The translations under genes and the position numbers were made by a program. This document shows positions 57,129 through 62,375 of a stretch of 64,000 nt of DNA, in pieces. Below the pieces are notes generated by a model, which searched no databases, was not told the DNA's origin, and saw nothing but the letters and a program-made list of their open reading frames with translations. Position 1 is the stretch's first letter, and the number at the start of each line of letters is the position of its first letter. The DNA is from Escherichia coli phage KS_S14. The DNA is taken from the sequence record LC788706.1. One strand, written 5' to 3'.

Positions 57129-57299
57129 ATGAAATCAGTTGTAATTATTGGTGTTAACACTCGCGGTATTCGTACTACGAAAACTGTTAAAACATCTAAC
57201 GTGGCTGAAATTACTACTAACCCTAAAAAGTTTGATTTCGCCAAAGTCTCAGCAGTTATGACAGAACAATCTTTTAACCAAGCGTTAGGAATGAAATAA
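57129..57299 (+). CDS. hypothetical small protein
   Basis: 56-aa ORF below ORF-track cutoff, RBS gagagga. Confidence 0.3.
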   Translation: MKSVVIIGVNTRGIRTTKTVKTSNVAEITTNPKKFDFAKVSAVMTEQSFNQALGMK

Positions 57300-57742
57300 T
57301 GGAAGAGAATATTTTAGATGTTTTGCGTAGAGCTTTGCAGGATTCTAAGTTTAATGGTTCTGATAAAGAAGTCGCTAAAAGCTATCAGACCATAATCGGG
57401 GATCTTCAGCGTATTAATAAAGATTTCATCACTTCTGAACAATTTGTGTCTTATCTCAAAGCTCAACTAAAAAGCATTAACCAGATGAAAGCTAAACTTC
57501 ATGGTCAAGATCTTGATAGTTATAGCTTGCAGTCCGCTCAGTATGAATACATTCTAAATAAGTGGTTGCAGGAGTATCTGCCTCCTCAGTTATCTGATAC
57601 TGAGATTCGTAAATACTTTGCAGAATTAGTTAAGCTAAACCCTGGAATTACAAAAGGTATGCTAATGAAAGCGATTAAGGAAGAATTTCCTGGGCGTTAT
57701 GATGGTGGTACTGCTGCTCAGATTGCTGGCGAATTTAATTAA
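57299..57742 (+). CDS. GatB/YqeY-domain protein
   Basis: 147 aa; C-terminal KGMLMKAIKEEFPGRYDGGTAAQIAGEF typical of YqeY family. Confidence 0.55.
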   Translation: MEENILDVLRRALQDSKFNGSDKEVAKSYQTIIGDLQRINKDFITSEQFVSYLKAQLKSINQMKAKLHGQDLDSYSLQSAQYEYILNKWLQEYLPPQLSDTEIRKYFAELVKLNPGITKGMLMKAIKEEFPGRYDGGTAAQIAGEFN

Positions 57743-57785
57743 AAATTTATTTGCTAAATGCTTATAAATTCTGTATAATATATTC
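57740..57785 (+). promoter_or_regulatory. T5-type early promoter driving tRNA/structured-RNA region
   Basis: AAAAATTTATTTGCTA with TTGCTA (57751-56), 17 bp, TATAAT (57774-79). Confidence 0.65.
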
Positions 57786-58017
57786 ATAAATTAGAGAACA
57801 GCGAGCCGATTACGCTGAACTTGTCTTAATGTAAGATGCGTCAAGCACTAAGATTCGTTGAATAGAGTCGGTGGGTTAGTTGTAAAACTAGTACACAGGG
57901 GGCGGCAATCCCGGTTAGTGGCTAGAACGTGTAAAATGAGGCGTCTGAAACCTCTCCCCTAAACTCTTCTCTAATTTATAAATAGTGGGGTGTGGAAATC
58001 ACTTATGTAGTAACACT

Positions 58018-58089
58018 GCCGTCCTAGTATAATTGGTATTATCAAGCCGTAACTGGTGGAAGATGTAGGTTCGAATCCTACGGTCGGTA
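58018..58089 (+). tRNA. tRNA-like element, possibly degenerate tRNA
   Basis: Perfect T-arm GTAGG-TTCGAAT-CCTAC and acceptor pairing with one U-U mismatch, but no convincing anticodon stem and no encoded CCA. Confidence 0.3.
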
Positions 58090-58591
58090 AGAACTGGATA
58101 ACTGATGCTTTTAACGTAAAAGCTTCCGAGGTTAGTTGCGCACTGCCTAAACCACGCGGTAGTTGGTTCCAGACTAACCAACCAGTCTGCTGAATAGTTT
58201 TATTACGATTTAACTATGTCCAGGCTAAAGAAGAACTTTAGAAGGTATTCTAGGATAGTGAAGTTCTTTCTCCATATCGGAGTAGTTTTTCAAGCTATCC
58301 ACAAAGTGGGAAATGCTGACATGAGAGATGTCACTAATGGTGCACAATAGCACAGGTAATTCGCGATAACTCCTGTTGAGTAGCAGCAAAAGGCGGGAAG
58401 TCATGACCCCAAGCCTAACCGAGTCCTCAATATACCGCAGGACATAACCACTAAGTCACCCTGACTTAAACTGGAAAATAATAGACGTTACTGTATTTTG
58501 TCTTGAAATACTTAATGAGCGAGACTTATGACTCTCCCGGTATCGTCTGTATTTTTAAGAGCTTTTATAAGAGTTCTTAAAAATGCCTAAA

Positions 58592-58666
58592 CGGGGTGTA
58601 GTCTAAGGGAGAGGCAGGAGTCTTCTAAATTCCTTTATGCAGGTTCGAATCCTGTCACCTCGGCCA
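58592..58666 (+). tRNA. tRNA-Arg (anticodon TCT)
   Basis: Hand fold: acceptor CGGGGTG/CACCTCG, anticodon stem GGAGT/ATTCC, loop CTTCTAA, T-arm GCAGG-TTCGAAT-CCTGT, encoded CCA. Confidence 0.6.
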
Positions 58667-58700
58667 ATTTTATTAACTGTAACTAAAACAAAGGAAACAT

Positions 58701-59648
58701 ATGTTTAATACTAAAAATATGAAAGAACTGACTTCTGAGCAGAAAGTAATTCGTACTATTAAACGTTGGGGTATTGGTGCTGTAGTTGGTTTAGCAGGCT
58801 TGATTCTAGCTTTTAATTCATATACTATTGTTTCTGATGGTACGGTTAAAACCCAAACATTCCTGGGTAAAGTAGATCCTAATCCAGTATTGCCTGGTTT
58901 CCACCTTGTAAACCCGTTTGCATCTTTCGATACTTTTAGTACAAAAGATATTGCTGTAAAATTATATAAACTTCAGGTTCCTAGCCAGGATAAGTTTAAA
59001 TCCACTGTTGACCTGACTGTTATGTTGCAGTTTGATGGTTCTAAGGCACCGATTAACCGTATTAACGCAGGTACTCAGGATCAGGCACTAGACAAGTATG
59101 TAACTGAAAAATTACTGTCTACTATTCGTGAGTTTGGTAAGTCTGTACCTAAAGCACAAGATTTATTTGATGCTAAAATTCAGGCTCAATTGCAAACTGC
59201 AATTCAACAGGAAGTTGAAGAGTATGCACGCCCATATGGTTACACAGTTAAGCAGGTGTTCCTTCAGGATATTACTTTGCCACCGGTAATCATGGAACAG
59301 GTACAGAATACCAAAGTTCGTGAAGAACAGGTTAATGCTGCGAAAGCTGAACTGGCTCGCGTTGAACAAGAAGCTCAGCAGAAAGTCAAACAAGCAGAAG
59401 CAGACCGTGAAGCTCGCAACAACCAAGCTATTGCCAATGAACGTGATGCAGATGCTAAACTGTACGCAGCTAAGAAAGAAGCTGAAGCTAACGCCGCATT
59501 GCAACGTACCATTACTCCTGAGATGATTCGCTGGAAGCAACTGGAAGTTGAAATGATTCGTGCTCAGAAATACCAAGGTGGTGTACCGCAGACTGTGGTT
59601 GGCACTGGCTACGATGGTCAAATGATTATGGATATGCGTAATAAATAA
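58701..59648 (+). CDS. SPFH / band-7 (prohibitin-like) membrane protein
   Basis: 315 aa; N-terminal TM helix (GIGAVVGLAGLILAF), SPFH-like core, Ala/Glu/Gln-rich coiled-coil. Confidence 0.65.
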   Translation: MFNTKNMKELTSEQKVIRTIKRWGIGAVVGLAGLILAFNSYTIVSDGTVKTQTFLGKVDPNPVLPGFHLVNPFASFDTFSTKDIAVKLYKLQVPSQDKFKSTVDLTVMLQFDGSKAPINRINAGTQDQALDKYVTEKLLSTIREFGKSVPKAQDLFDAKIQAQLQTAIQQEVEEYARPYGYTVKQVFLQDITLPPVIMEQVQNTKVREEQVNAAKAELARVEQEAQQKVKQAEADREARNNQAIANERDADAKLYAAKKEAEANAALQRTITPEMIRWKQLEVEMIRAQKYQGGVPQTVVGTGYDGQMIMDMRNK

Positions 59649-59672: not shown

Positions 59673-59708
59673 AGCCCTGCGTTTCCTGGAGAGCGCAGGG
59701 CTTTTCTG
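59673..59708 (+). terminator. rho-independent terminator after SPFH gene
   Basis: AGCCCTGCG...CGCAGGGCT then TTTTCTG. Confidence 0.7.
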
Positions 59709-62297: not shown

Positions 62298-62375
62298 GGT
62301 TCTCAAGCTCATATGGTATGAGCACCCGGCTCATAACCGGAAGGTACGTAGGTTCGAATCCTCGGGGAGCCACCA
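62298..62375 (+). tRNA. tRNA with CAT anticodon (Met or Ile2-type), weak T-stem
   Basis: Acceptor GGTTCTC/GGGAGCC with G-U pairs, D-stem GCTC/GAGC, anticodon loop CTCATAA, TTCGAAT T-loop but only 3 T-stem pairs; encoded CCA. Confidence 0.45.

Follow-up and report, generated by a model that had tools for sequence, protein, structure and literature searches.

The window analysed here, a stretch of 64,000 nucleotides (nt) from Escherichia coli phage KS_S14 (sequence record LC788706.1), comes from a T5-like phage of the genus Tequintavirus. Within it, about 850 bp without a credible gene separate the stop of an open reading frame (ORF) for a YqeY-like protein from a transfer RNA (tRNA) gene, tRNA-Arg(UCU), behind which lies a gene for an SPFH protein. 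The greater part of this interval, positions 57786-58591 on the + strand, is the ortholog of the T5 gene rnaX and probably encodes a structured RNA, non-coding and built of several domains, that would be about 806 nt long and is referred to below as RNAX. The surrounding segment (57700-58700) shares 99% identity with Salmonella phage LVR16A, phage NBEco001 and many other Tequintavirus genomes. The strong promoter that the original prediction had placed at 57740-57785 is borne out by a sigma-70 sequence that matches at 10 of 12 positions in a promoter scan and has an A/T-rich stretch upstream. Its T5 homolog, annotated as 'P 16-17', overlaps the start of rnaX, and the sequence is kept in all relatives examined. 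The first transcribed nucleotide is taken to be the A at 57786, by analogy with T5 PN25. On the + strand, a terminator scan found no terminator-like site between 57786 and 59684.

The identity of the RNA follows from the annotation of its homologs. In the T5 record AY543070, the homologous stretch is a misc_RNA feature named rnaX, with the product 'RNAX' and the note 'stable RNA with unknown functions'; it is 719 nt long, begins inside 'P 16-17' and ends exactly where tRNA-Arg starts. Phage DT571/2 (NC_047749) carries the same annotation. In another T5 record, AY587007 (Wang et al.), only the tRNA-like element described below is annotated, as a tRNA pseudogene. RNAX is therefore a gene already present in T5 records and not a new find, which the original prediction missed. 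Identity to DT571/2 is 95.9% over 57962-58697, and identity to T5 is 91.7% over 57962-58476 and 96.0% over 58454-58700, with the annotated rnaX under these matches; over 57962-58590, the two phages give 92-95% nucleotide identity. Gene order agrees as well, running from the T5.081 homolog through the early promoter, the RNA and tRNA-Arg(UCU) to the SPFH gene. The T5 RNA shares with that of KS_S14 the tRNA-like element and the conserved motifs, and the two differ in two places: where KS_S14 has a full 5' domain of 194 nt, T5 and DT571/2 have a 39-nt hairpin, the domain being reduced in them to the closing helix P0 with an 8-nt loop, and T5 has an additional 83-nt hairpin flanked by a duplication of a 20-nt motif. 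In total, 524 GenBank phage records match RNAX. Among the search matches are records labelled 'Campylobacter phage C13' and 'Listeria phage LM 4-11-1', 93-97% identical to the RNAX region, which are probably mislabelled or contaminated. In a viable T5 deletion mutant, st0 (AY692264), the junction of the deletion falls within the YqeY-like gene, and rnaX, tRNA-Arg and the SPFH gene are missing, so that RNAX is dispensable on laboratory E. coli.

The structural evidence was drawn from 20 annotated loci and from over 100 viral or metagenomic ones (all labelled L below). They yield about 30 distinct versions of the best-conserved part and, for the RNA as a whole, 12 lineages with less than 97% identity, all in the Demerecviridae. 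When RNAalifold was applied to the whole 12-sequence alignment, the long-range pairs were unconvincing, because MAFFT misaligns modules that have been swapped; this approach was replaced by alignments of single domains. Alignment A1 covers helix P1, the tRNA-like domain and the hairpin that follows (15 distinct sequences), and A2 covers the 3' domain, taken here as 58303-58474; as controls, 3' partner strands were slid by 1-3 columns and alignments were shuffled (n = 500). Covariation across related phages, named as a check by the original prediction, was clear in both. In A1, 92.5% of cells are paired against 28-44% in the slid controls, and 14 pairs are compensatory, compared with 7.0 +/- 1.4 after shuffling; in A2, the paired cells amount to 94.4% against 27-49%, and 18 of 40 pairs are compensatory against 9.0 +/- 1.8. 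No shuffle reached the observed count (0/500 each), and the two alignments together hold 32 compensatory base pairs, far above either control. G.U accounts for about 10% of the paired cells and would read A.C on the other strand, so the structure exists on the + strand only, in agreement with the orientation of promoter and tRNA. Folding of single sequences on the + strand gave z-scores between -1.1 and -4.5, depending on the domain, compared with 0.1 and -0.4 for two flanking ORFs used as controls. Comparison of the phages thus shows an RNA structure on the + strand that is under strong selection and kept by compensatory evolution.

Coding capacity offers a different explanation of the same interval, since gene callers annotate short coding sequences of 34-60 amino acids there in several records. 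The 'hypothetical proteins' so predicted differ in frame and strand from one genome record to the next, as happens when gene callers meet non-coding DNA. Six ORFs of 23-60 codons, on either strand, overlap 57999-58580; they are intact only in near-identical genomes, and relatives at 65-85% identity show in-frame stops, loss of the start codon or indels that are not multiples of three. As no ORF is conserved among relatives, the reading as small proteins was rejected and can hardly be credited, and the earlier statement that the region has no credible protein-coding frame holds.

At the centre of A1 stands the tRNA-like domain, which reaches 35.5 bits on the Rfam tRNA model RF00005 (gathering score 29) and has recognisable acceptor, D and T arms. 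In this match, 18 nt are skipped by cmscan at the position of the anticodon arm, where a stem of 3-4 bp with a 6-nt loop (GUAACU or UUCACC) is found in place of the 5-bp stem and 7-nt anticodon loop of a tRNA. Lacking an anticodon arm, the element is not a tRNA. ARAGORN, which had also been suggested, makes no call on it in the window and returns inconsistent calls (SeC, Ser, '???') in relatives. The original prediction had seen at 58018-58089 a degenerate tRNA-like element with a perfect T-arm and no anticodon stem. The element, its UUCGAAU T arm and the lack of a true anticodon arm are confirmed; the short stem at that position went unseen, and 'degenerate' is the wrong word, for in A1 the acceptor stem, the mini-arm and the T arm covary (the D arm does not), and the whole sits on the conserved helix P1. 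The acceptor stem reads GCCGACC/GGUCGGU in T5 and GCCGAUC/GAUCGGU in DT571/2, and in the window it includes one U.U mismatch. No CCA is encoded (...GGUCGGU-A-AGAAC). The flanks pair with each other in P1, whose 12 pairs are formed in 100% of cells across the 15 distinct sequences, six of the 12 with compensatory changes, and which keeps one C.C and one G.G mismatch. A U at -1 and a G at +1 of the element are conserved. Only this one tRNA-like unit was detectable in RNAX, with Rfam and with model R1; a second R1 match in a Sugarland-type locus was set aside as the genuine tRNA-Arg.

Natural variants define the standing of this unit within the RNA. S116-type phages (L018, L056, L068) keep P1 and the conserved motifs but have, where the tRNA-like body would be, a hairpin unrelated to it, GCCAGA-UGCUCA..UGAGC..-UCUGG (about 861-984 of L018), in what amounts to a natural domain swap. 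Sugarland-type phages have an enlarged 'anticodon' arm. The tRNA-shaped unit is therefore a conserved yet exchangeable peripheral domain of a larger RNA; it is maintained, being neither a decaying gene nor the essential core.

The remaining domains are listed in Table 1. In the 5' domain, the presumed 5' end of the RNA is perfectly complementary to the closing strand of P0, with 12 of 12 positions paired in most variants; G.U wobbles occur, and two phages (L030/L039) carry the double compensatory change AUAAAUUAGAUG / CAUCUAAUUUAU. The minimum free energy (MFE) structure of this domain reproduces P0 (z = -2.15). Its interior, which holds a conserved hairpin CAGCG-AGCCGAUUA-CGCUG, has been swapped between clades and does not covary. 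The GGGGUG and GAA of the joining motif that follows are invariant in A1 and in the Sugarlandvirus versions; a leader hairpin GUG...CAC within this motif was considered and dropped, as it is not consistently pairable (smaug and pzk-kv23 break the pairing). In the middle domain, sub-modules are present or absent according to clade. The long inverted repeat previously located at about 58225-58275 was recovered there (58229-58271), and inside it an inner hairpin UAGAA-GGUA-UUCUA has the variants UAGGC/GCCUA and UAGUC/GACUA. The GTCCT...AGGAC hairpin, likewise reported before, belongs to the 3' domain. The tail has an MFE z-score of -4.53, and the terminal hairpin is conserved, being a perfect palindrome in SB13. 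This hairpin is followed by AUGCCUAAA; since no U-run follows it, it is not a terminator, and neither an intrinsic terminator nor an attenuator was called there.

Table 1. Features of the RNAX locus in the window of phage KS_S14.
Feature	Position	Strand	Details
5' domain	57786..57979	+	194 nt; closed by P0, AUAAAUUAGAGA (57786-57797) with UCUCUAAUUUAU (57968-57979)
Joining motif AUAGUGGGGUG(NN)GAA	57982..57997	+	Between P0 and P1; highly conserved
P1 helix, 5' strand AUCACUUAUGUAGU	57998..58011	+	Partner 58093-58106
tRNA-like domain	58018..58089	+	Acceptor stem, D arm, T arm (UUCGAAU loop); Rfam tRNA
P1 helix, 3' strand ACUGGAUAACUGAU	58093..58106	+	Partner 57998-58011
Hairpin GCUUUU-AACGU-AAAAGC	58107..58123	+	Directly 3' of P1; 6 pairs, 2 compensatory, 95.6% of cells paired
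Middle domain	58127..58300	+	Hairpins with compensatory variants; z = -2.57
Middle-domain hairpin UUGCG-CACUGCCUAAACCA-CGCGG	58136-58159	+	Variant UUUCG/CGAGG
Middle-domain hairpin GUUGGUU-CCAGACU-AACCAAC	58162-58182	+	Variant GUUGAUU/AAUCAAC
Middle-domain hairpin AGUCUG..AUAGUU-loop-AACUAU..CAGGCU	58184-58226	+	
Long inverted repeat	58229-58271	+	AGAAGAACUU (58229-58238) pairs with AAGUUCUU(U)CU (58261-58271)
Middle-domain hairpin CUCC-AUAUC-GGAG	58270-58282	+	
3' domain	58303..58452	+	Closed by invariant GUGG (58306-58309) with CCAC (58448-58451); RNAalifold on A2
3'-domain hairpin	58317-58333	+	
3'-domain long irregular helix	58338-58356 with 58372-58388	+	Loop carries conserved CGNGAUAAC
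3'-domain hairpin	58393-58398 with 58407-58414	+	Loop holds the invariant palindrome AGUCAUGA
3'-domain hairpin GUCCU/AGGAC	58423-58427 with 58439-58443	+	5 of 5 pairs compensatory in relatives
Invariant hairpin AAGUCA-CCC-UGACUU plus UAAACUGG	58453..58474	+	
Variable tail segment	58475..58550	+	Three clade-specific versions
Terminal near-palindromic hairpin AUUUUUAAGAGC...GUUCUUAAAAAU	58551..58584	+	7 nt before tRNA-Arg
Predicted RNAX primary product	57786..58591	+	806 nt; from homology and annotation, no conserved ORF, structure
Sigma-70 early promoter	57751..57779	+	-35 TTGCTA (57751-57756), 17-nt spacer, -10 TATAAT (57774-57779)
YqeY-like protein, T5.081 homolog	57299..57742	+	Pfam YqeY; often labelled 'tRNA amidotransferase'
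tRNA-Arg(UCU)	58592..58666	+	ARAGORN and Rfam; T5 rnaX annotated as abutting tRNA-Arg
SPFH/Band-7 membrane protein	58701..59648	+	Downstream, presumably co-transcribed; Pfam Band_7, E = 8.8e-17

Among relatives, whole domains have been swapped, lost or replaced around a core of conserved motifs. Several motifs between the helices are invariant in Tequintavirus, Epseptimavirus and the Klebsiella phages of Sugarlandvirus, at an overall identity between genera of 65-80%. They comprise GGGGUG..GAA, AACACU before the tRNA-like domain, AAGA..GAUAACU, CUAAACCACG, AGUGGGAAA, AUAACCAC and AGUCACCYUGACUUAAACUGG, together with the palindrome (G)AGUCAUGAC(C), which is displayed in a hairpin loop. Around them, the smaug, SE3 and SE19 types have an ORF for an HNH homing endonuclease in place of the 5' domain, and the S116, SB13 and Sugarland types contain an extra module of about 190 nt. 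The endonuclease ORF, of the HNH_3 family, was seen at 417-899 of the smaug locus (L009) and also in L010, L020, L054 and L102, which are from some Epseptimaviruses; its ATG coincides with the presumed RNAX transcription start, so that its mRNA would be leaderless. Downstream, a 510-nt ORF separates the RNA from tRNA-Arg in SE19 and 26175IV, which retain RNAX, and in Sugarlandvirus tRNA-Arg lies about 1.2 kb further on. In Obesumbacterium phage Ob_P, all that is left (1198-1347 of L019) is the leader with three-quarters of the tRNA-like domain, counted from its 5' end; ORFs have taken the place of the rest, and the RNA has thus apparently been lost in that lineage.

One of the invariant motifs has a distribution of its own. 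The 20-mer GTCACCYTGACTTAAACTGG (58455-58474 in the window) occurs as exact copies in six independent contexts outside T5-like phages, namely five short contigs (L082/L090, L087/L100, L088, L092, L096) and one 97-kb phage contig (L089/L099). Two of the five short contigs encode proteins resembling RNA-dependent RNA polymerases (RdRp), recognised by Pfam RdRP_1 in L088 and by a GDD motif in L087, and in both the 20-mer stands 14-20 nt past the stop codon; in the 97-kb contig, it likewise follows an ORF. A search for homologs of the L088 protein returned one match only, at 30% identity, and the virus was therefore not classified. In our own reading, most copies outside T5-like phages have an upstream CCR that could pair with the YGG of the motif and so enclose the hairpin AGUCA-CCY-UGACU. 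No copy of the 20-mer turned up in 596 Gb of bacterial and archaeal genomes or in E. coli genomes. In T5 itself (L004, AY587007, about 2000-2110), the 83-nt hairpin insertion is flanked by the direct duplication AGTCACCTTGACTTAAACTGG ... AGTCACCTTGACATAAACTGG, and a metagenomic T5-like contig (L095) shows the same arrangement. Literature searches on the motif retrieved nothing relevant; matches to a 13-mer in papers were unrelated primers and gene sequences. The 20-mer may be a mobile or a convergent RNA element.

The neighbouring genes supply further context. The upstream YqeY-like protein scores 25.4 bits on the Pfam YqeY model, slightly below the cut-off of 27. The YqeY domain is known from the tRNA-binding C-terminal tail of GatB, and it is conceivable that this protein is a partner of the tRNA-like domain. 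A gene for a DUF7616 mini-protein (57129-57299) precedes it. Beyond the SPFH gene, a terminator-like hairpin at 59684-59700 corresponds in position to an annotated T5 terminator. Searches with neighbouring proteins for more distant T5-like phages showed that the SPFH protein is also common to T4-like phages, and a SleB query returned close relatives only. Elsewhere in the window, 62298-62372 scores 40.3 bits on the Rfam tRNA model directly after tRNA-Ser(GCU) and was not reported by ARAGORN; a further non-canonical tRNA or tRNA-like gene may lie there.

A working model can be outlined from these features. Host RNA polymerase would make one early transcript, comprising RNAX, tRNA-Arg(UCU) and the SPFH mRNA, from the T5-type promoter. 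A cut by RNase P at the 5' end of tRNA-Arg would then give RNAX its 3' end, ...GCCUAAA (58591). A second RNase P cut, at the internal tRNA-like domain, may or may not occur; since P1 pairs both flanks, the fragments would stay together even if it did. As to function, we tentatively propose an accessory protein-binding RNA, a tRNA-mimicking decoy or scaffold serving host takeover or counter-defence, whose targets would be host (or phage) tRNA-binding or tRNA-targeting factors and which might act as a dimer through the palindromic loop AGUCAUGA. The locus lies in a tRNA-rich region that has been termed an anti-defence island (Azam et al.), the source of T5 tRNAs active against PARIS and retron Ec78 and of Rad, a protein that inhibits retrons. 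A protein-binding accessory role is favoured because RNAX is dispensable in the laboratory, presumably strongly expressed early and situated in a counter-defence region, and also because its tRNA shape would be uncleavable by anticodon nucleases and its loops are invariant, one of them a palindrome suited to dimerisation.

Several observations weigh against this account. The MFE z-score of the whole region is only -1.77. The compensatory events are few and not independent, since they come from about 12 lineages below 97% identity with mosaic recombination, and P0 and the GUGG/CCAC closure are so nearly invariant that covariation hardly tests them. The term 'stable RNA' comes solely from the GenBank note, and searches on RNAX and on T5 stable RNAs found no open-access paper describing or characterising it. 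As for the functional proposal, S116-type phages have lost the tRNA-like body, which speaks against tRNA mimicry being the core activity, and these phages keep the YqeY-like gene. Finally, each domain is closed by its own local helix, which would also suit a set of separate molecules.

That last point leads to the reading closest to the original prediction, a transcribed array of structured RNAs. The structure-rich, non-coding + strand RNA and its annotation in T5 as a stable RNA bear out much of that description; the word 'array' is unproven, T5 having one RNAX of 719 nt. As the domains are each closed locally, a single RNA and an array are both possible. Under the latter, the transcript would be cut into several independent small stable RNAs of 100-200 nt, by RNase P, acting at tRNA-Arg and the tRNA-like element, together with RNase E or RNase III. 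Domains are gained and lost independently among the phages, their sizes (117-194 nt) resemble those of the small RNAs of T5 (103-172 nt), and the U at -1 and G at +1 of the tRNA-like element are conserved, so that this outcome has a sizeable chance of being correct, if less than an even one. It has to contend with the single T5 annotation, with P1, which spans the tRNA-like element such that cleavage there would not part the pieces, and with invariant single-stranded motifs that connect the domains.

The other two readings fare worse. RNAX could act in cis as a leader (insulator, processing platform or attenuator) for the downstream tRNA-Arg(UCU)/SPFH mRNA, with which it would be co-transcribed with no terminator in between; in the Markadamsvirinae it abuts tRNA-Arg. 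The distant tRNA-Arg of Sugarlandvirus and the intervening ORF of SE19 and 26175IV, where RNAX is kept regardless, make this improbable, and 600-800 nt with interchangeable domains far exceed known leaders. Alternatively, the region might be evolutionary debris, consisting of decayed tRNA genes and homing-endonuclease scars transcribed by position only: one element is tRNA-derived and was annotated by Wang et al. as a tRNA pseudogene, and the region is mosaic, deletion-tolerant and subject to HNH insertions. Debris would hardly be expected to yield 32 compensatory pairs in two alignments or motifs that stay invariant between divergent genera, nor does a single detectable tRNA-like unit suggest an array of decayed tRNA genes, and this explanation is accordingly very improbable.

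If RNAX is a decoy or an RNA-protein scaffold, a large structured RNA would join the counter-defence repertoire of phages, and would do so in a tractable phage. T5 is a classical model whose tRNA-rich accessory region was recently shown to be a source of counter-defence, and RNAX is the largest non-coding gene of that region. What is new here is a domain map supported by covariation for an RNA conserved in at least three genera of Demerecviridae; RNAX becomes concretely testable through its defined helices, its invariant loops and the domain swaps found in nature. In a more speculative and, as a whole, unlikely extension, RNAX might found a class of modular phage non-coding RNAs, so far undescribed and large (0.6-0.8 kb), in which a conserved core of short motifs, P0, P1 and the GUGG-CCAC closure carries swappable domains, a tRNA mimic among them. 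Such RNAs would self-associate via AGUCAUGA and act as decoys or scaffolds against tRNA-directed or RNA-sensing immunity of the host, and GUCACCYUGACUUAAACUGG would be a horizontally mobile RNA element shared with RNA viruses (the contigs encoding RdRp) and the unrelated 97-kb phage contig.

RNAX was also compared with known RNA families. A cmscan search of 57600-58800 against Rfam 15 (4,227 families, E <= 10) gave two tRNA matches and one spurious match of 16.5 bits on the opposite strand, and 14 related loci gave nothing beyond tRNA at E <= 1. Hence no match was obtained to the models for GOLLD, ROOL, OLE, bacterial Y RNA, 6S, RNase P, group I/II introns or ribozymes. A transfer-messenger RNA (tmRNA), defined by a tRNA-like domain formed from the termini and a tag ORF, was not found by ARAGORN, and tRNA was the sole Rfam match. 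Mimicry of a host sequence was likewise not seen, with no RNAX match in 5,426 E. coli genomes.

Within T5, the st0 record AY692264 (3288-6087, L091) annotates six other misc_RNAs among the tRNAs: RNAIII, RNAI, RNA1, RNA2H, RNAIV and rna2. Like RNAX, these are annotated as non-tRNA stable RNAs of the tRNA region with unknown function; they are absent from the window, are much shorter (103-172 nt against about 720-806 nt) and have no sequence similarity to RNAX beyond a 13-mer of the T arm. Sequences resembling a T arm occur in RNA1 and rna2, and RNAI has GCCA at its end; the six could form a family of tRNA-derived non-coding RNAs. In T4, the species 1 and 2 stable RNAs (rnaC, rnaD) of about 120-140 nt lie in the tRNA cluster, are co-transcribed and co-processed with the tRNAs, are dispensable in the laboratory and remained without a known function for decades. 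RNAX resembles them in its history and differs in being multi-domain and much larger.

The likenesses to the T4 RNAs, and those that follow, are analogies and not memberships. GOLLD (RF01998) and ROOL (RF03087) resemble RNAX in their size of about 600-800 nt, their occurrence in phages next to tRNAs and their conserved motifs between variable helices, whereas RNAX has no Rfam match to either at E <= 10, other motifs and hosts among the Enterobacteria. ROOL and GOLLD form cages, and by this comparison the self-complementary loop of RNAX could mediate multimerisation. A tRNA-shaped module without a decoding anticodon loop is also embedded in the larger non-coding RNAs YrlA (a bacterial Y RNA), tmRNA and MALAT1, whose module is mascRNA. 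The modules are joined to their RNAs in different ways, on the anticodon side in YrlA, from the RNA termini in tmRNA and through the acceptor-stem extension P1 in RNAX. By analogy with these three, the embedded module of RNAX could recruit tRNA-processing or tRNA-binding proteins.

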